Source of the DNA: a virus
Reading direction: 5' to 3' (one strand)
Virus record (IMG/VR): IMGVR_UViG_3300045988_123705
Span: 1-45,496 of that record
Length of the DNA: 45,496 bases
Shown: positions 8,946 through 45,496 of the stretch, in pieces
Numbering within the stretch: position 1 is the first letter of the stretch
Layout of the letters: every line of letters begins with the position of its first letter
Notes under the pieces: generated by a model
The model's input: only the letters and a program-made list of their open reading frames with translations
Told to the model about the DNA's origin: nothing
Databases searched by the model: none
Program-made: the position numbers and the translations under genes

Positions 8946-9169
8946 TGGCAGATATGGTAAATCACCCTTCTCATTACACACAAGGTGGGATAGAATGTAT
9001 AGACGCCTTAGAAGCGGCTACAATCAATTTAAAAGGCATTGAGGCAGTTTGCACAGCAAATGCCATTAAATACCTTTGGAGATGGAAAGAAAAAGGAGGG
9101 ATAGAGGATTTAGAGAAATCTAAGTGGTACATAGACCGCCTGATAAAAAAGATAACAATAAAAGCGTGA
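8945..9169 (+). CDS. DUF3310-like phage protein
   Basis: NHPSHYTQGGIECIDALEA ... NAIKYLWRWKEKGG..DLEKSKWYIDRLI is the typical HPxHY / KYLxR signature of this small phage family. Confidence 0.7.
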   Translation: MADMVNHPSHYTQGGIECIDALEAATINLKGIEAVCTANAIKYLWRWKEKGGIEDLEKSKWYIDRLIKKITIKA

Positions 9170-9181
9170 TATAATAAAAAT

Positions 9182-9255
9182 GTCCTTTGGCAACTCTCGC
9201 TAAGATTTAAACCTGCCAAAGGACGGGGGCGGCAACTCACCGCCCTTTTTGTTTT
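9182..9255 (+). terminator. Tandem hairpins ending the early operon; the second is a canonical intrinsic terminator
   Basis: 11-bp stem GTCCTTTGGCA/TGCCAAAGGAC (9182-9192/9214-9224). Then GGGCGG-caactca-CCGCCC (9227-9245) followed by TTTTTGTTTT. Confidence 0.8.
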
Positions 9256-9288
9256 GAATCAGGTATAATATGAGTGGAGGATTTGACG

Positions 9289-36144: not shown

Positions 36145-36240
36145 ACCTAAAAATGTCACAGAAATAAACCTATTGAAACCAAGCAATATCTTTTATAAAA
36201 GGGTATTGCAATTATGTAAATGGGGTGATAAAATAATTGC

Positions 36241-36405
36241 AGGTGAGATGTACACCTCATTCATCTGCTGAATAAGCAGTTTAGAAAACTTAATGAATGA
36301 TTATCATGTTATCTGCCGAATAGGCAGCTTAGAAAATGTAAAGAATGATTAATCATTCCGTGAGGTGTCATTTCAGAAAGAAGCACTTGTAATGAGTGCT
36401 TTTTT
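36241..36405 (+). ncRNA. Candidate ~165-nt structured RNA with internally duplicated two-hairpin module and its own promoter and terminator
   Basis: TTGCAA-17-(TGa)TAAAAT at 36206-36234. Closing helix 36252-36259/36361-36368. Hairpins CTGCT-GAATA-AGCAG and CTGCC-GAATA-GGCAG (compensatory changes). Terminator AAGCACT-tgtaatg-AGTGCTT + T5 (36381-36405). Confidence 0.4.
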
Positions 36406-36788
36406 CATTGTATAATTCTTGTATAGAGTGCATATAGCCGTGGCGGAGGAGCTTATCACCATGGATGTCACGAGAAACAGGAAAGAAACGTAAATGATTT
36501 CCCACGTGGCAGTTCAGAAGAGTTGGAATCCGTAGGAGAGAACTACTCCTATAAAAATCCCCATCATCGACACTATATTTTGTTCATGCACTGACATATA
36601 TAGTGACGGGTTATCGATTGACAGGCCTATGACAGTAAGCAACTCATTTATCAGAGTGAGCCGAACTCATAGGCTTTTTTACTGCCAATAATACGCTTCA
36701 CTTTTGATACACATTTAATACGCTTATTTTTCTAAGCGCATTAGGAGAGGCACAAAAAAGGCACAAAAATATATTTTGAACGTTTTCA

Positions 36789-37859
36789 TCACCCAAAAAT
36801 CCGTTGGATATCACTTGCCGCCTTTTCCCTCATCTCTTCCGTGTAATGTAGATACACCTGCTCAACGGTGGTGACTGTATCACCTAATAAGCTTGCAACG
36901 GTTCTTATGTCTACACCATTTGCTAATAAATTGGTAGCATAAGTATGGCGGAAGTCGTGCGGAGAATGGTTAGGTGTTATACGAATTATTGTGTTCCGTA
37001 TTTCCGTGTAATACTTAATTCCGGTGAGCCTTCCATCCATGTATGAAAATGGACGTTGATCAAGATATATTTGCAGCGCCTTGTGTAACTTTTGCGGGAT
37101 GGGGATTTTTCTGTGACTGTTCTTTGTCTTTAACGGTTTAAATGTATATTTGCCATTATGCCCCTTTCCCCATTGTTTGTCTACTATCAATTCTTTATTG
37201 TTGAAGTCGTTTACAGTAACAGCCAGTGCCTCATTGACACGAAGACCGCAGTATTCCATCAAGCAACAGATAATCCATGATGATCTACTATGGTTGAATA
37301 ACTCTTTGTGAATAATATCTAATTCAGCTTGATTAAAAGTCCGAATCCGATTTCCATTGGTGTTTCTTTTTAAGCTTTTATATACATAATCTGTTAATAC
37401 ATTTACAGCAATCACCTTATATCTTACGGCTGCCTTGAATAGTGTTTTTAAAACAACAATACTATTCTTACATGTTTTGTATGAGTAATTTAAGGCAGAA
37501 ATGGCGTGCATACAGTCACTGTAAGTAATCTTACTCATCGGTATATCAAGCAGGGCAGGGAAACGGTTTAAAGCGTTCTTATAAGAAATATATGTGTTGT
37601 ATGCCAGTATACTTTTTTGATCTTCGAGGTAACTTTCTGAAAACTGCCGAAGAGTAACGCCCTCTTGAGATATGTCAATAGACAAAAGCCCTTTTACTTG
37701 CTTGAGTAGGGCTTCTTTTTCTTCTCCTGTTATATCTCTCTTATTCTTATATCCGGACTTTGTTTTCTGTCTCCATTGCCCAGCATTGTCTTTATACCTA
37801 AGAATAAGCTGAAAGTATCTGCCTTTTTTCCTGATAAAATAGCTGTAATTGCTTTTCAT
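36789..37859 (-). CDS. int: Tyrosine integrase
   Basis: C-terminal HDFRHTYATNLLANGVDIRTVASLLGD......VYLHY (HxxR...Y). Arm-binding type N-terminus MKSNYSYFIRKKGRYFQL. An upstream ATG 37901 is also possible. Confidence 0.92.
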   Translation of the reverse strand: MKSNYSYFIRKKGRYFQLILRYKDNAGQWRQKTKSGYKNKRDITGEEKEALLKQVKGLLSIDISQEGVTLRQFSESYLEDQKSILAYNTYISYKNALNRFPALLDIPMSKITYSDCMHAISALNYSYKTCKNSIVVLKTLFKAAVRYKVIAVNVLTDYVYKSLKRNTNGNRIRTFNQAELDIIHKELFNHSRSSWIICCLMEYCGLRVNEALAVTVNDFNNKELIVDKQWGKGHNGKYTFKPLKTKNSHRKIPIPQKLHKALQIYLDQRPFSYMDGRLTGIKYYTEIRNTIIRITPNHSPHDFRHTYATNLLANGVDIRTVASLLGDTVTTVEQVYLHYTEEMREKAASDIQRIFG

Positions 37860-37978
37860 TTTGCCCTTTCTATGGTATAATAAACATGAGGGTAAATCCA
37901 TTTCTCATTTCATTCATCTTTTATCTCCCTCACAAAAGCACTCATTCCTAATCCTTTCTAAGTGGGTGCTTTTTTATT

Positions 37979-38257
37979 TTATACTTTTCCCGATACATCG
38001 TTTCTGCAATGAGGACAGACAGAAGCTCCTTTCTTTACAAATTCCTTGCAAAACGGGCATTCTACATATCCATTTTCTTGCATTTCTTTTGCCTTCTGTT
38101 CGGGTGCTTTTGAAATAACAAGTGAGTGAATAAGGGCTACAATAAACAATAACACGCCATAAATATACCAAACAGCAAAATTACGTCCTTTGCCCTTAGC
38201 GATAATTGCGGGAATTGCCCCTAAGAATAATGCTAAAATAATAAATTCTGGTTCCAT
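37979..38257 (-). CDS. Small membrane protein with C-terminal zinc ribbon (CPFC...CPHC)
   Basis: Two TM segments then ECPFCKEFVKKGASVCPHCRN. Last gene of the repressor operon, followed by a hairpin + U-tract (37937-37975 region). Confidence 0.6.
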   Translation of the reverse strand: MEPEFIILALFLGAIPAIIAKGKGRNFAVWYIYGVLLFIVALIHSLVISKAPEQKAKEMQENGYVECPFCKEFVKKGASVCPHCRNDVSGKV

Positions 38258-39050: not shown

Positions 39051-39436
39051 TTTTCGCCATCCTCATCACTTAATGCGAATTTTACATAACTTGCAATCTT
39101 TTTACGTTTATCTTCGTCAATTTCGTATTCATACCCGTTAAATAGGACTGTTGCCCCTTGTAGTTCTTTATATATATCTATCTTTTTACCAGGTCGTTTT
39201 GAACCATATTCTTCCGACAACTCATTCACCGCCATCTTAGTAAGCCCCATTAACTCCGTGGGTGATATGTGAAATATTTCTGCAAATCGTTTGATCTTAG
39301 ATTGTGACAAATCAACCTCCCCTGATTCTATCTTGCCGATCATTGAACGAGATTTATAACCTGCTAATTTGGCGAGTTCATCTTGAGAAAGTTGCGATTT
39401 GATTCTTAAAGCCTTAATCCGTTCGTACATTGTCAT
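39047..39436 (-). CDS. XRE-family CI-like repressor
   Basis: ERIKALRIKSQLSQDELAKLAGYKSRSMIGKIESGEVDLSQSKIKRFAEIFHISPTELMG. Divergent from the Cro-like gene. Confidence 0.88.
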   Translation of the reverse strand: MTMYERIKALRIKSQLSQDELAKLAGYKSRSMIGKIESGEVDLSQSKIKRFAEIFHISPTELMGLTKMAVNELSEEYGSKRPGKKIDIYKELQGATVLFNGYEYEIDEDKRKKIASYVKFALSDEDGEK

Positions 39437-39516
39437 ATTATCACCTCTTTATATATGTATATAACCTCAACGTAGAATTAAAATCAACAAAAATGTTAAA
39501 ATTACAAAAAAATATG

Positions 39517-39545
39517 TTGACTTTAATTCCCGCACGATGTAGAAT
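39517..39545 (+). promoter_or_regulatory. Rightward early promoter (PR-like) TTGACT-17-TAGAAT overlapping a GTAGAAT operator-like repeat
   Basis: TTGACT 39517-39522, TAGAAT 39540-39545. GTAGAAT(T) copies at 39471, 39539 and, inverted, at 39814-39821. Confidence 0.65.
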
Positions 39546-39598
39546 ATAATTAAACAAGAGGGAATAAGATTCCCCAAAAGAAAAGGTGGTGAGACAAA

Positions 39599-39814
39599 AT
39601 GTTTAATCGAGAGTTGTTTGATAAAGCAATTGATAAAGTAGGGGTGAGAAAGTCGTTCATGGCAAAAAAACTTGGAATAACGCCCGCTGCATTCTATTAC
39701 AAAATAAACAGCCAGCGAGAATGGAAGGCTTCTGAAATTGCGACTGTTTCAAAATGTCTTCATTTATCAGATGAAGATATTAGGAGCATTTTTTTGGGTA
39801 AAATGGCGAATTAA
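39599..39814 (+). CDS. Cro-like small HTH regulator
   Basis: 71 aa, VRKSFMAKKLGITPAAFYYKINSQREW HTH. First gene rightward of the switch region. RBS AAGGTGGTGA. Confidence 0.7.
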   Translation: MFNRELFDKAIDKVGVRKSFMAKKLGITPAAFYYKINSQREWKASEIATVSKCLHLSDEDIRSIFLGKMAN

Positions 39815-39844
39815 ATTCTACAAACGGAAAGCGAGGTGAAGAAA

Positions 39845-39967
39845 ATGCCAGAAAAGAAAAAATTGAAAAAAAGCCCTTATCGGTTAGAAAAAGGCTCTTC
39901 CTCAATAACAGTATCAGAGGACAAAATAATTATCCATGCTGATAAGGTTACGGTTTTACAGAGATGA
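39845..39967 (+). CDS. Small hypothetical ORF (40 aa)
   Basis: GAGGTG RBS 6 nt before ATG 39845. Below the track size cutoff. Confidence 0.3.
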   Translation: MPEKKKLKKSPYRLEKGSSSITVSEDKIIIHADKVTVLQR

Positions 39968-40106
39968 TGGAACTTATTGAAATGAAGAAAGGATGTGTAA
40001 CGAATGGGGTTAAGTAAAAGCAGAGATTTTATCAAAGAAATGAAAGAACGAATGAAAAAAAGACGCCCAGTGATGGGGGAAATCCAACAAAGAGCGTCTA
40101 AAAACG

Positions 40107-40364
40107 TTATTTTGCGGAAAGTTCAGAACGAATCAAATCCTTGATCTGCTCTTCCATACGCAAATTCTGTTTTTCAAGAATGGTCGCAATAGCCACTGGT
40201 AGCACTTTTTTAAAATTTGCCAACGAACATGCTTCCAGCTGTTCAAACGGATTAGTTCCTGCTTGCTGGGCGGCCTGTATAACGACAGAATCTGCCCATT
40301 GTTGGTTTTCGTCAATCCATTGGTTAGCTAATTTGACTATTTCTTCCTTGGTAAAACCAATCAT
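40107..40364 (-). CDS. Leftward-transcribed hypothetical protein (85 aa) embedded in the rightward early region
   Basis: ATG 40364 preceded by GGAAGGAGGTGG. Promoter TTGTAA-17-TATAAT. Minus-strand terminator AGACGC...GCGTCT + U7 at 40054-40099. Confidence 0.65.
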   Translation of the reverse strand: MIGFTKEEIVKLANQWIDENQQWADSVVIQAAQQAGTNPFEQLEACSLANFKKVLPVAIATILEKQNLRMEEQIKDLIRSELSAK

Positions 40365-40395
40365 GATGTTCCACCTCCTTCCTATAACCAACTTG

Positions 40396-40424
40396 ATTAT
40401 AGAGCATAACGGAGGCGATTACAA
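40396..40424 (-). promoter_or_regulatory. Leftward promoter TTGTAA-17-TATAAT for the 85-aa gene
   Basis: Plus-strand ATTATA 40396-40401 and TTACAA 40419-40424, exact 17-nt spacer. Confidence 0.65.
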
Positions 40425-40463
40425 AGAAAGGAGAATTACCATATTTAAAACTAATTTCAATGT

Positions 40464-40521
40464 AAAAAGCCGACTGACATCACACCATCAATCGGCGGGT
40501 GGAAAAGTGAGTGACACTTCC
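40464..40521 (-). ncRNA. Candidate ~58-nt antisense sRNA (copy A) upstream of the antirepressor gene
   Basis: On the minus strand, extended -10 TGtTAAAAT (plus 40528-40536). Then GGTGGAA.. hairpin, then GCCGATTGA-loop-TCAGTCGGC (G-U only on this strand) + U5. Confidence 0.4.
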
Positions 40522-40549
40522 ACCTCTATTTTAACATAGGAGGTCAAAA

Positions 40550-41338
40550 ATGAAAAATTTAATGACGATTGAAAATGTAAAAGGATTTTTAGATCCAAAG
40601 ACAGGAACAGCCTATCTCAATGCAGAAGATGTGGCACGGGGGTTCGGATTTACACAAGACAAAAATGGCATAGAGTATGTCCGATGGGAGACGGTAAATG
40701 GGTATTTGACCAAATTTGGATTTTCCCAACGAGTTGGGAAAGATGATTATTTACCAGAAAACATGGTATATCGTCTTGGGTTTAAAGCAAATAACGAAAC
40801 GGCAAAGAAATTTCAGGCTAAATTGGCGGATGACGTCATCCCTGCTATCCGTAAAACAGGCATGTACATGACAGAAAATGCTGTACAGAACATTCTCAAT
40901 AATCCGACGGCTTTTATTGAAATCCTTACTGAATACAAAAAGGTACAGGACGAAAACAAAGCACTTGCCATGCAGAACGCCAGCCAGAAACAGCTTATAG
41001 GTGAATTGAAGCCGAAGGCAGACTACACAGATTTAATCCTCAAGAGTAAATCTCTTGTAACAATCACACAGATTGCCAAAGATTACGGAATGAGCGGACA
41101 GGCGATGAATAAAATTCTCCACAATCTGGGAATTATCTACAACCAGTCTGGGCAGTGGCTCCTGTATAGCAAACATCAGGCAAAAGGTTATACACATAGT
41201 GAAACGGTAAACATCGTTCACAGTGATGGACGGGAAAATGTAAAGATGAACACGAAATGGACACAGAAAGGACGCTTGTTCTTGTATAACACACTGAAAA
41301 AAGAGGATATCATCCCCGTTATTGAGAAAGGAGCTTGA
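40550..41338 (+). CDS. ant: Phage antirepressor (N-terminal Bro-N/AntA-like, C-terminal KilAC/ANT domain)
   Basis: AEDVARGFGFTQ...YVRWETVNGYL... and C-terminal DYTDLILKSKSLVTITQIAKDYGMSGQAMNKILHNLGIIY..GQWLLYSKHQAKGY. Confidence 0.85.
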   Translation: MKNLMTIENVKGFLDPKTGTAYLNAEDVARGFGFTQDKNGIEYVRWETVNGYLTKFGFSQRVGKDDYLPENMVYRLGFKANNETAKKFQAKLADDVIPAIRKTGMYMTENAVQNILNNPTAFIEILTEYKKVQDENKALAMQNASQKQLIGELKPKADYTDLILKSKSLVTITQIAKDYGMSGQAMNKILHNLGIIYNQSGQWLLYSKHQAKGYTHSETVNIVHSDGRENVKMNTKWTQKGRLFLYNTLKKEDIIPVIEKGA

Positions 41339-41574
41339 ACGTGGACGAAAAAACGATTGCCGCTTACAAAAACATAAACAGACAACAAAAGGTAGATGTT
41401 GGATCCCTGTACAGGAAAAAGCTTATTGAGTTTCTTGATAAAGCGTCCGACATCTACGAACTGGAAAGCGCTAACAAATGTATAAAAATGCTGCCGTATC
41501 TTCCCGATGAAGACAACACTGTATACGCAAAAAATGAAGATACAGGGCAGATGGAGAAAGTGTTTCAGAGGTGA
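41335..41574 (+). CDS. Hypothetical protein (79 aa)
   Basis: Track ORF, non-ATG start overlapping the ant stop. Confidence 0.4.
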   Translation: MNVDEKTIAAYKNINRQQKVDVGSLYRKKLIEFLDKASDIYELESANKCIKMLPYLPDEDNTVYAKNEDTGQMEKVFQR

Positions 41575-41578
41575 ATAA

Positions 41579-41863
41579 ATGCAAGAGGTATTCACGATAG
41601 ACGAATTGGCTAAGCGGTGGGGGTGTAGCAAATCTACCATCGCAAGACATGAAAAAGATGGATATTTGCGTCGCTGTTCAAATGTTCCAGGCGGAATCCA
41701 TTACCCGCTTTCAGAAGTCCTTAAATGCGAGGACATTCAGCAGAACTATTCACCTTTATCTCCAGCGTCTCATGGGATGTTGGTGAGAAAAATAAATGCA
41801 CTTCAAAAAGAAAATGAGAACTTATCAAAAAAATTAGAAAAAGCAAGGGAGGTATTGTCATGA
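41579..41863 (+). CDS. MerR/excisionase-type HTH protein (possible Xis or regulator)
   Basis: VFTIDELAKRWGCSKSTIARHEKDGYLRR is an HTH_17/excisionase-like N-terminus, followed by a coiled-coil tail. Confidence 0.5.
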   Translation: MQEVFTIDELAKRWGCSKSTIARHEKDGYLRRCSNVPGGIHYPLSEVLKCEDIQQNYSPLSPASHGMLVRKINALQKENENLSKKLEKAREVLS

Positions 41864-41940
41864 TTGACAAGGCAATGAATGTACTGTATATCGTTATTTT
41901 CCTGTTTATGATTGCGGCTGTTGTGGAGGCTATCCGATGA
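41860..41940 (+). CDS. Small hydrophobic peptide (26 aa, single TM)
   Basis: MIDKAMNVLYIVIFLFMIAAVVEAIR. GGGAGG RBS. ATGA overlaps at both ends. Confidence 0.45.
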   Translation: MIDKAMNVLYIVIFLFMIAAVVEAIR

Positions 41941-42194
41941 AAGCGTTAATAGCATTTATAGCGATCGTGGGGTTGGCAGGATATGCAGTAGAGCCTGAAC
42001 AGCCGCTGATTGCTTATAAGGCAACTATTTCCAAAACGGAAACAGTTTGGGATGTCTGCTCACGAATAGCCGGCAACCAAGATAACATGCAGGAATTAGT
42101 ATGGCGGACGATGAAAGAAAACCACATCAACAATCCAGGCGAAGTACAGCCTGGACAAGAAATTATTGTGAGAGTAAAGGCGGTGAAGAAATGA
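41937..42194 (+). CDS. Membrane-anchored LysM-like domain protein
   Basis: N-terminal MKALIAFIAIVGLAGYA anchor. TVWDVCSRIAGN..ELVWRTMKENHINNPGEVQPGQEIIV fits the LysM pattern. Confidence 0.5.
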   Translation: MKALIAFIAIVGLAGYAVEPEQPLIAYKATISKTETVWDVCSRIAGNQDNMQELVWRTMKENHINNPGEVQPGQEIIVRVKAVKK

Positions 42195-42376
42195 CTGACG
42201 CAGAAAAGTTTAAACATATCAGCGAATATGTACGCCGCAGGCATAAGCAGGAGTTAGATGTCTGGACAGATGCGGACAAAAATGGTCAAGTGATAAACGC
42301 GGCCAAAGCGAGTATACGCGAAGAAATTTTATTTGAAATTATTACTGAGCTAAACGAAATTGAAAAAGCCGACTGA
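42191..42376 (+). CDS. Hypothetical protein (61 aa)
   Basis: ATG 42191 in ATGA overlap with the upstream stop. Confidence 0.45.
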   Translation: MTDAEKFKHISEYVRRRHKQELDVWTDADKNGQVINAAKASIREEILFEIITELNEIEKAD

Positions 42377-42418
42377 TAATTGCAGTTATCAATCGGCGAA
42401 CGTATTGGTGATACATCC
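42363..42418 (-). ncRNA. Candidate ~56-nt antisense sRNA (copy B), paralog of 40464..40521
   Basis: On the minus strand, TGaTAAAAT (plus 42425-42433), GGTGGA, 12-bp stem GCCGATTGATAA/TTATCAGTCGGC (G-U on this strand only) + U5. Confidence 0.4.
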
Positions 42419-42447
42419 ACCATTATTTTATCACAAAGGAGAAATAA

Positions 42448-42714
42448 ATGTACGGTGTAGACGATGAAGAATTACGAGAGGAGTTAAGGCGTATTGATAC
42501 AGCGAATAAAGAAAATGCGCTGTATCACATAAAACAAGCCCTGGGATATTCAAATTGTGAAGTAACTGACATTGAATTAGTTCAGGACGGATGTAGGACA
42601 TTTGTTGACATTACAGTCCAAAGCGGGGCGATATTCCGAGCGAATGTATCAATGGATAGTGTCGGCGCCATGATATACGACATTTTCAGGCAGTGCGAAT
42701 GGTTGAGATCATGA
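42448..42714 (+). CDS. Hypothetical protein (88 aa)
   Basis: RBS AAGGAGA. No motif. Confidence 0.5.
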   Translation: MYGVDDEELREELRRIDTANKENALYHIKQALGYSNCEVTDIELVQDGCRTFVDITVQSGAIFRANVSMDSVGAMIYDIFRQCEWLRS

Positions 42715-43037
42715 AAATTGAGTTTACAGAAAATAACTTCATTAGATTTCTTGAAAAATTGGTTCAATGTGGAACCAGAGATACATGTTTTTTCTCTATG
42801 AGTTGGGAGGTATTTGATCCACTTAGAGACCCACTGATTGTCGGCGTTGATGTTAGATATGGTAAAAAGAACAGCTTGTATAAAAGCCTTAATGTACACA
42901 TTCAAAATCATGTTAATGCGGAAATCGAAATTGATGGGAAATCAAAAGTCTGCAAAACGCCGTTTGAAGCGTTTGAATTTATCAAAAGTATTTATGAAAT
43001 GAAATTTGGAGGAAAAGAAAATGGCAAAACTTTATGA
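42711..43037 (+). CDS. Hypothetical protein (108 aa)
   Basis: ATG 42711 in ATGA overlap. No motif. Confidence 0.5.
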   Translation: MKIEFTENNFIRFLEKLVQCGTRDTCFFSMSWEVFDPLRDPLIVGVDVRYGKKNSLYKSLNVHIQNHVNAEIEIDGKSKVCKTPFEAFEFIKSIYEMKFGGKENGKTL

Positions 43038-45003: not shown

Positions 45004-45496
45004 TTGGCAGAACAAACACGGAACAAAAGGCGGCTTTATTGGTTGAAATTGCCAGAAAACTTTTTCAGAAGAAAGGAAATAAAACGCTTAAGAAGAATTG
45101 CGGGCGGAGATACGTTTACTGTTATTTACCAAGAAATGTTATTGCTTGCAATGAATAACAGCGGACTTTTGAGCTTTGATGGATTTGACGAAACCTTTGC
45201 AAAAGAAATTGCGCTTGAGTTAGATGAAGACCCTGATAATGTTCAAATGACCGTGAATTATTTACTTAGAACAGGACTAATGACAGAAGTTACCCCCGAT
45301 GAATATCACTTGCTTGAATCTGACGTGTATACAAGCAGTGAAAGTATAAGCGCAGAGCGGGTTAGAAGATTTAGGGAAAACCAAAAAGCGTTACAATGTA
45401 ACACTCATGTAACGCAAGTGAAACGTTTGTGTAACGTAGAGATAGAGAAAGATACAGAGATAGAGAAAGATACAGAGATAGAGAAAGATACAGAGA
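45004..45496 (+). CDS. Replisome organizer, N-terminal domain (Phage_rep_org_N-like); ORF runs off the window end and continues at nt 1
   Basis: TTG 45004 six nt after AGGAGG. WLKLPENFFRRKEIKRLRRIAGGDTFTVIYQEMLLLAMNNSGLL...EIALELDEDPDNVQMTVNYLLRTGLM. Confidence 0.85.
   Translation, partial: MAEQTRNKRRLYWLKLPENFFRRKEIKRLRRIAGGDTFTVIYQEMLLLAMNNSGLLSFDGFDETFAKEIALELDEDPDNVQMTVNYLLRTGLMTEVTPDEYHLLESDVYTSSESISAERVRRFRENQKALQCNTHVTQVKRLCNVEIEKDTEIEKDTEIEKDTE
45442..45496. repeat. 18-bp tandem repeat x3 (+1 nt), identical to nt 1..55; preceded by a partial unit GTAGAG
   Basis: Direct reading. In frame it encodes IEKDTE x3. Confidence 0.95.

Follow-up and report, generated by a model that had tools for sequence, protein, structure and literature searches.

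Our analysis of positions 1 to 45,496 of the virus record IMGVR_UViG_3300045988_123705 (IMG/VR), a 45,496-nucleotide (nt) stretch that we refer to as the window, suggests that the short block at 40464-40536, directly upstream of the antirepressor gene ant, is one copy of a modular minus-strand cassette for a cis-antisense small RNA. Of the explanations considered this is the best overall, and we hold it with slightly better than even confidence. The block is very likely a complete minus-strand small-RNA gene, as judged from its sequence, and the unit is probably transcribed roughly as predicted; that the downstream gene would be regulated by antisense pairing is about an even call, and the specific route by which pairing might refold the leader of that gene is a tentative, somewhat doubtful proposal from structure modelling. 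The data directly show the sequence elements, the way in which they are conserved and covary, and the thermodynamic predictions; that the RNA is made from the stated start, pairs in living cells and alters translation is inferred. An earlier note, made from the letters of this DNA, had read the block as a compact minus-strand transcription unit similar to sar and oop, whose RNA would be antisense to the ant leader. Comparative data from related phages strongly favor the compact promoter-hairpin-terminator unit. The sar-type, ant-specific part of the claim is not borne out, since the predicted RNA misses the ribosome-binding site and the cassette precedes other genes in relatives.

Elements of the cassette and its probable working strand

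On the minus strand the unit (cassette 1) begins with a -35-like hexamer TTTTCA at 40551-40556, which overlaps the ant start codon of the opposite strand and which a promoter scan paired with TAAAAT at a spacing of 17 nt, flagging the TG. The extended -10 box TGTTAAAAT lies at 40536-40528 (TRTG-type, TATGTTAAAAT; the plus strand reads ATTTTAACA) and is separated by 6 nt (ACCTCT at 40522-40527 on the plus strand) from the presumed start, a G (40521, 7th nt past the box). From about this position the sigma-A-type box would start an RNA of some 58 nt (40521-40464 on the minus strand) consisting of a hairpin at +1, a 4-nt linker and a terminator, and folding of this predicted RNA gives two hairpins (-22.0 kcal/mol, z -3.8). 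Its 5'-terminal hairpin (40501-40521, minus strand; GGAAGUG...CACUUUUCC) opens at +1, while the full form of the same GGTGGAA...TTCCACC pairing, hairpin 2 (40497-40525, plus strand), is complete only in the sense RNA, that is, in the ant leader. The other, hairpin 1, is an intrinsic terminator hairpin at 40496-40469 on the minus strand (GCCGAUUGAUG...UGUCAGUCGGC), whose arms GCCGATTGA and TCAGTCGGC (minus strand 40496-40488 and 40477-40469) form 9 pairs and can be extended to 11, 5 of them G-C, followed by UUUUU (40468-40464, A5 on the plus strand). It is among the two top minus-strand terminator-like sites of the scanned region. On the plus strand its U.G pair becomes a C-A mismatch and the stem is followed by GGGTGG rather than by a T-run, so that it does not qualify as a terminator there. 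To the right, on the plus strand, stand the Shine-Dalgarno sequence AGGAGG (40538-40543) and the ant open reading frame (ORF) at 40550-41338, whose leader would be the antisense target; the product is identified as Ant by its Pfam ANT/KilAC (3.5e-36) and Bro-N domains and by the PHROG anti-repressor family (4e-71). The -10 box, the G at 40521, the GGTGGAA hairpin, the stem with its mismatch on one strand and wobble on the other, and the U5 tract all lie where the earlier note had placed them, and the predicted length agrees with its estimate of about 58 nt.

The predicted promoter is conserved at the positions that count in this type of promoter. Among 54 distinct cassettes of the family described below, TG stands one base upstream of the hexamer in 52, many of them with TRTG, and T1, A2, A5 and T6 of the hexamer are kept in 54/54, with positions 3-4 left to vary (TATAAT, TACAAT, TAATAT, TAAAAT). 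GGAA follows the box without any indel in between, always at a distance of exactly 7 nt (54/54 variants). By its sequence this is an extended -10 promoter of the sigma-70/sigma-A kind. A plus-strand promoter within the cassette was considered and rejected, as the look-alike TATnnT has neither a TG nor a conserved -35, lies in the variable loop region and degrades to CATTAT in several variants.

These same positions bear on the possibility that the block is a pair of back-to-back terminators or a sense leader structure, in which hairpin 1 would halt leftward strays, hairpin 2 and its U-rich tail would serve as a weak rightward terminator or mRNA stabilizer similar to tR1, and the -10 look-alike would be a by-product of the AT-rich tail. 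Such an arrangement would account for the tail after hairpin 2 (UCUAUUUU in cassette 1), for a plus-strand terminator-like site flagged in the second copy, cassette 2, and for the plus-strand wobbles in the lower stem of hairpin 2, and a true A5-hairpin-hairpin-T5 arrangement does occur at 9167-9253. However, what is conserved is exactly TG-n-T-A-n-n-A-T rather than U content, hairpin 2 is ill suited to termination, given its loops of 10-15 nt and tails such as UCCAUUAUA, and analogous units keep a promoter and a minus-strand terminator without a plus-strand U-tract, and we therefore regard this explanation as improbable.

The terminator likewise points to a minus-strand RNA. Hairpin 1 has its U-tract on the minus side in every case and on the plus side in none, and each family member shows an A-tract 5' of the hairpin on the plus strand, also where the stems are unrelated; whole-stem replacements keep pairing (GCCGAUUGA, GACGAUUGG, GGGCUUUGA, GCCUGCCGUUGG, CCCCGCCCUCG, GCCGCUUGCA). 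The named structure is 89.7% paired, both sides change in 10 pairs, and its covariation score exceeds that of all 500 shuffles and of all slid controls; in the main terminator helix, two-sided changes are seen in 8/11 pairs. Stem position 6, the C-A/U.G position, is U.G in 37 cases, C-G in 9, U-A in 6 and A.C in 2, and recurs in three unrelated stem backgrounds. Over the nine base pairs adjoining the U-tract we count 40 cells with a G.U pair on the minus strand versus 4 with one on the plus strand. The earlier note had argued from the single wobble of cassette 1 that the minus transcript is the functional one and had named covariation across related phages as a check; the wobble counts and their recurrence agree with this argument, and in the related phages minus-strand pairing is kept, with two-sided changes and a minus-side U-tract. 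A small ORF on the minus RNA was also considered and rejected, since its 9-codon GTG frame is confined to cassette 1 and missing from the common variants.

The cassette family, its second copy and its mosaic spread

Recurrence of the cassette is far beyond chance. Within the window its A-tract and stem pattern has 2 matches versus 0 in 100 shuffles, and the family is present in at least about 90 contigs of gut phages in IMG/VR. When IMG/VR was scanned for exact patterns, that of hairpin 1 turned up in 60 contigs and that of hairpin 2 with the -10 box in 89 stretches. A scan with a 15-base core pattern gave many chance matches in coding sequence, and membership was limited to those matches that follow a reverse-complement ribosome-binding site. 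A covariance model, R1, which was built from relatives with cassette 2 left out of its seed, has about 87 matches at >=48 bits among 93 loci and exactly two copies in the window, at 40466-40539 (66.6 bits) and 42365-42436 (48.6 bits, E 1e-10). A loose hairpin pattern run over genome contigs returned mostly ordinary terminators of many phyla, the whole cassette being found only in one metagenome-assembled genome labelled Dialister (L065). Members share a plus-strand layout of A-tract, hairpin 1, 0-1 nt, hairpin 2 (GGCGGAAA...TTTCCGCC), TC(T/C)ATnnTAnCA, ribosome-binding site and ATG, and the RNAs predicted for relatives are 58-65 nt long with a 5'-terminal hairpin opening with GGAA, a 2-5-nt linker and a terminator. 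No Rfam family matched at gathering or permissive thresholds, the best sub-threshold matches being unrelated (E 0.03-0.3). The cassette is best filed as an undescribed family of putative phage cis-antisense small RNAs with unusual modular spread and hypervariable loops.

Cassette 2 occupies 42363-42433 on the minus strand, with TGATAAAAT at 42433-42425, a predicted start at 42418, a 5' hairpin, a terminator at 42397-42368 that the terminator scan also listed, and U5 at 42367-42363, and its predicted RNA folds at -23.6 kcal/mol (z -5.3). The earlier note had called it near-identical to cassette 1; the second copy is indeed present, and the A-tract, terminator stem and TGATAAAAT box are common to both, but the middle part differs, so that the description overstates the likeness. 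The stop codon of ORF 42101-42376 lies inside the cassette 2 stem and the next gene is ORF 42448-42714, a conserved 88-amino-acid (aa) family on the plus strand; two minus-strand ORFs over the cassette (42431-42601 and 42582-42911) were rejected on account of this family.

Hairpin-1 variants, hairpin-2 loops and -10/ribosome-binding-site variants combine freely across the family, and loops are exchanged wholesale among relatives. The genes to the right of the cassette include a YqaJ-like exonuclease, a 425-aa ATPase and proteins of 88, 66 and 110 aa; those to its left are many unrelated ORFs, often ending ...EKAD*, with the stop codon within hairpin 1. An ...(E/K)KAD* ending is thus common to unrelated upstream ORFs at 42362-42376 of the window and at the equivalent site in about 30 loci, because the last codons and the TGA stop fall in the A-tract and the 5' arm of hairpin 1, which implies that the left edge of the mosaic block cuts into coding sequence. 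Conservation falls off directly 5' of the A-tract and near the start codon. At two loci (L014, 1272-1350; L194, 6731-6809) some loops, and in L194 all of hairpin 1, are exact reverse complements of the common form, and the loops TAACTGCAATTA and TAATTGCAGTTA, which are seen in hairpin 1 of many loci, are among those found in reverse-complement form; this suggests inversion at palindromes, via template switching or recombination between arms.

Mobility of this kind might be explained at the level of DNA, with the block serving as a recombination linker for module exchange or as a cruciform or origin-type site that has no RNA function. The conserved block does span from stop codon to start codon between unrelated genes, and both the many upstream ORFs that end ...EKAD* in hairpin 1 and the flipped loops and hairpin could be read in this way. 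Compensatory changes nevertheless keep pairing with strand-specific G.U pairs, the variable arm spacing speaks against an inverted repeat bound by protein, and non-homologous units keep the same promoter-terminator logic, all of which make a purely DNA-level role extremely improbable in our view. Movement between gene contexts could equally suit a real small RNA that acts in trans or as a decoy (on a host or phage mRNA target, as an anti-defence RNA or as a replication primer), and the same genome has another small structured RNA locus that mimics CRISPR repeats. We consider this very improbable, since the RNA has no conserved single-stranded seed, its loops being the most variable part while stems and signals are kept, and since it is always found in a single orientation directly 5' of a ribosome-binding site.

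By its gene content the window is apparently a whole temperate phage of Firmicute type. The lysogeny arm has an integrase at 36789-37901 on the minus strand, followed by an ImmA-like protease and a helix-turn-helix (HTH) repressor, also on the minus strand, and an early promoter at 39517. Rightward from there lie a cro-like DUF739 gene (39599-39814, plus), an 85-aa gene (40107-40364, minus), cassette 1 and ant, and after ant an excisionase-like HTH gene, cassette 2, the 88-aa gene and then early genes. In six relatives the order is repressor (minus strand), then cro, an xis-like HTH gene, two small ORFs, the cassette and the recombination/replication module (YqaJ/RecT or ATPase). Since the usual site precedes this module, cassette 2 is the copy at the usual site and cassette 1 an extra one. 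The 85-aa gene, which has its own promoter-like site at 40424-40396, shares its strand with the predicted RNA and lies downstream of the cassette 1 terminator; it points away from the cassette, does not overlap it, and gave no informative family match in Pfam or PHROG. A megablast search of 39400-43000 against GenBank phages gave no match. Compared with the closest relative of this region (L232), where ant follows directly after cro and no cassette is present, 39830-40540 of the window is an insertion of about 700 bp that holds two tiny plus-strand ORFs, the 85-aa gene and cassette 1.

To our knowledge, what is known of regulatory RNAs in temperate phages comes almost entirely from a handful of Enterobacterial models (oop, sar, c4 and anti-Q), and gut Clostridia phages have hardly been studied in this respect. 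The cassette family is compact (about 105 bp), easily recognized and present in roughly a hundred gut-phage contigs, where it would guard genes of the lysogeny/lytic decision, namely replication, antirepressor and, by analogue, integrase genes. If the RNA is made, it would provide a direct experimental handle on the silencing of dangerous phage genes and an annotation rule for an unannotated intergenic element, and a small portable repression module for Firmicutes may result. The family also suggests that modules of a phage mosaic can meet at a functional RNA gene.

Proposed action and comparison with known antisense systems

Temperate phages of the gut Clostridia type place the cassette directly before the ribosome-binding site of an early gene read rightward, which is usually the one that opens the recombination/replication module and, for the extra copy here, is ant. 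In the mechanism that we propose, the small RNA would regulate this right-hand gene in cis by antisense pairing. On the sense leader the paired stretch would run from where the upstream gene ends into the upper part of hairpin 2. As long as the leader is free, hairpin 2 would hold an anti-Shine-Dalgarno segment (ACCUCU here, GCCUCU or GCCUCC in relatives) and leave AGGAGG open. The antisense start lies one position beyond this segment, and pairing would therefore dissolve hairpin 2 and free the segment to close the ribosome-binding site. The 58-bp duplex would in addition be a substrate for ribonuclease III (RNase III), as for oop/cII.

Several observations are consistent with this scheme. The 6 nt between box and start are nearly invariant (A1 group), GAGGC or GAGGT on the minus strand corresponding to (G/A)CCUC(U/C) in the sense RNA, a complement of GGAGG. 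Able to form in the sense RNA only, the lower stem of hairpin 2 has 9 plus-strand versus 2 minus-strand G.U pairs across 11 distinct arm combinations, and the arms of hairpin 2 covary (GGCGG/CCGCC to GGTGG/CCACC). In partition-function calculations over 67 distinct contexts the mean probability that the Shine-Dalgarno is unpaired falls from 0.59 in the free leader to 0.14 when the part covered by the antisense RNA is blocked, and for cassette 1 from 0.52 to 0.17. As a control, 50 ordinary starts in the window have a median unpaired probability of 0.68, and only 2% of them are at or below 0.17. On this modelling, the refolding step is supported and unproven.

It might instead be the act of transcription itself that works: a strong promoter directed against the early operon, and followed immediately by a terminator, would form a roadblock or 'sitting duck' that limits read-through into ant or the replication genes, in lysogens for instance, the terminator serving only to shield upstream genes from antisense transcription. 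Promoter and terminator are indeed the best conserved parts while the loops vary freely, the -35 region falls on the ant start codon, so that bound polymerase would occupy the entry to the gene, and the units precede int, ant and replication genes, where leaky expression is costly. Interference alone, however, needs no stable two-hairpin product, and both the 5'-terminal hairpin at exactly +1 in all variants and the invariant GAGGC segment, which points to selection on the RNA or on the leader structure, are unexpected for a roadblock; we judge it distinctly unlikely.

A number of points weigh against the cis-antisense explanation or parts of it. The predicted RNA does not overlap the Shine-Dalgarno or the start codon, which excludes direct occlusion, and the refolding that would replace it is a thermodynamic prediction only. 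The start at 40521 is assumed from the -10 spacing, and the complementarity of CCUC to GGAGG is beyond a covariation test because the Shine-Dalgarno never varies. The GCCUC segment is missing from cassette 2 and from the non-homologous analogues; the refolding route is therefore not general, and oop-like duplex cleavage or transcriptional interference have to be considered too. Fold energies are indecisive about the strand: hairpin 1 is more stable on the minus strand in 22 variants and on the plus strand in 12, and hairpin 2 in 16 and 15, respectively, and some upper-stem wobbles are compatible with the plus strand only. Sense transcription across cassette 1 must cross the convergent 85-aa gene, and a promoter-terminator unit at 9167-9253 lies in sense orientation, so that the layout is not always antisense. 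Finally, the closest known phages, those of Faecalibacterium and Roseburia, have a TerL identity of only about 42%.

A more far-reaching form of the antisense idea is that the cassette is a portable two-strand RNA switch whose loop alleles, which are discrete, unrelated to one another and at times flipped, serve as kissing-loop specificity determinants, providing superinfection immunity at the level of RNA. As the leader would hold a Shine-Dalgarno mimic, an anti-Shine-Dalgarno and the Shine-Dalgarno, with the antisense RNA freeing the anti-segment, any gene placed to the right would be repressible. If this were true, superinfecting phages with matching alleles would find their replication or ant genes blocked by the constitutive antisense RNA of a prophage, and this layer of immunity would be under diversifying selection, comparable to P1/P7 c4 or to plasmid incompatibility RNAs. 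At present we consider this form unlikely.

Concerning the antisense cassette and ant, the likeness to sar is partial. In P22, as Liao et al. reportedly found in 1987, sar pairs with the ribosome-binding region of ant. Similar to sar, the predicted RNA would be small, antisense and rich in hairpins, its promoter would lie at the ant start, with the -35 region on the ATG, and transcription would lead from ant leftward through the intergenic region. By contrast, its predicted 5' end (40521) stops 17 nt before AGGAGG and 29 nt upstream of the ATG (40550) and leaves the ribosome-binding site uncovered, unlike sar, which pairs with this region (PMC13397905). Searches of neighboring genes found no ribbon-helix-helix (Arc/Mnt-type) repressor domain, and at 80 loci with Ant relatives (45-87% identity) no cassette is located upstream of ant; the cassette precedes ant in this window only, and other genes in relatives. 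Without overlap of the ribosome-binding site, an Arc/Mnt neighbor, a link to ant or an Rfam match, and with no homology between the two RNAs, membership in the sar family fails. That the RNA would be antisense to the ant leader presupposes read-through from the early promoter at 39517, which is plausible.

Both sar and oop are precedents for phage antisense RNAs (PMC5415839, PMC13397905, PMC2629481), oop being cis-encoded and RNase III-dependent (PMC5415839) and P22 oop being listed as antisense to c1 (PMC13397905). The position of the cassette is closer to lambda/P22 oop than to sar, and membership in either family fails. Like oop, the cassette would make a short RNA from its own constitutive-type promoter, with an intrinsic terminator, against the rightward early operon; it usually lies at the border of regulatory and replication genes (cassette 2, cassette 1 being extra); and the perfect sense-antisense duplex would be an RNase III substrate. 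As to overlap with the gene upstream, the two copies differ: cassette 2, in common with many relatives, reaches over the final codons and the stop codon of ORF 42101-42376, by only about 14 nt, and cassette 1 has no such overlap. There is no sequence or Rfam similarity, the phages that carry the cassette are Firmicute-type gut phages, and unlike oop the cassette directly adjoins the ribosome-binding site to its right, is mobile between gene contexts and occurs up to twice per genome. As modelled, the short two-hairpin countertranscript would tip a sense leader that can adopt either of two folds towards the inhibitory one, as in plasmids of the pT181/pIP501 type, where RNAIII/repR of pIP501 is described as 'riboswitch-like induction of premature termination' (PMC5415839). 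In the plasmids, though, the inhibitory fold is a transcription terminator, whereas that of the cassette would be sequestration of the ribosome-binding site, taken from thermodynamic modelling; no homology was found, a weak match to ctRNA_pT181 lying elsewhere in the window and far below threshold. Intergenic cis-antisense RNAs of the GadY type, which direct processing between two cistrons (PMC5415839), are similarly encoded opposite to the intergenic region of a polycistronic mRNA, but GadY stabilizes its target. A sense-strand reading of the HK022 put type was tried, given hairpins 0-1 nt apart, and failed on the C-A mismatch in sense hairpin 1 of most variants, the flipped loops and one flipped whole hairpin, and the lack of an Rfam match.

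Similar units and other loci

Units of the same plan recur in the window. Under strict criteria it has 7 strong terminator hairpins, 4 of which have TGnTAnnAT no more than 110 nt upstream on the same strand; these 4 promoter-terminator units compare with 0.22 expected (Poisson P ~8e-5), and none were found in 20 randomized sequences. In relatives, non-homologous units show the same layout of reverse-complement ribosome-binding site, TGTGTTATAAT, small hairpin and terminator with a U-run, and are antisense before other genes (for example L019 1950-2024, L017 3187-3254 and L005 2036-2113).

One unit of the window (37853-37979, plus strand) has TTTTCA, 14 nt, TGGTATAAT at 37873-37881 and a predicted start at 37888, from which an RNA of about 88 nt would end in a 13-bp terminator with U6 (fold z -5.3). 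The unit runs opposite to the ribosome-binding site and start codon (37899-37901) of the integrase gene, a true sar-like geometry, in this case for int, and the promoter regions of this unit and of cassette 1 are 77% similar. The lysogeny arm of relatives holds another recurrent unit (TGTTACAAT, a hairpin, a 14-bp terminator CCCGTCGTCATA...TATGGCGGCGGG and a U-run; L003 8163-8240, L026 1269-1346, L044 1143-1221, L007 1736-1813 and others), which is antisense to genes around int (upstream of int) and opposite in orientation to the main cassette.

At 9167-9268 (plus strand) the arrangement is a sense one, with TGATATAAT over the stop codon of the upstream ORF, two hairpins (9167-9253, the first with A5 on its 5' side), TTTTTGTTTT, TATAAT at 9263-9268 and a gene from 9274, and it could be either a sense small-RNA unit or a terminator-promoter junction of the early and late operons. 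An R1 match at 9179-9259 (E 0.078) belongs to this sense-strand unit and was rejected as a family member.

Between the late genes and int, at 36227-36406 on the plus strand, a TGATAAAAT box is followed by two repeats similar to those of CRISPR type I-F, 48 nt apart with a spacer of about 20 nt, and by a terminator AAGCACT...AGTGCTTTTTT. The repeats lie at 36259-36287 (26.0 bits) and 36308-36335 (GTTATCTGCCGAATAGGCAGCTTAGAAA; Rfam CRISPR-DR4, 39.3 bits against a gathering score of 35), and from its sequence this locus looks like a phage mini-array, an RNA anti-CRISPR or a regulator similar to a CRISPR RNA, for which comparison cases are available (PMC10651486; bioRxiv 10.1101/2024.10.29.618823). 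Lastly, 45438-45496 holds at least 3 perfect copies of a 23-nt unit with 18 nt spacing (AGAGATAGAGAAAGATACAGAGA), running off the end of the window.

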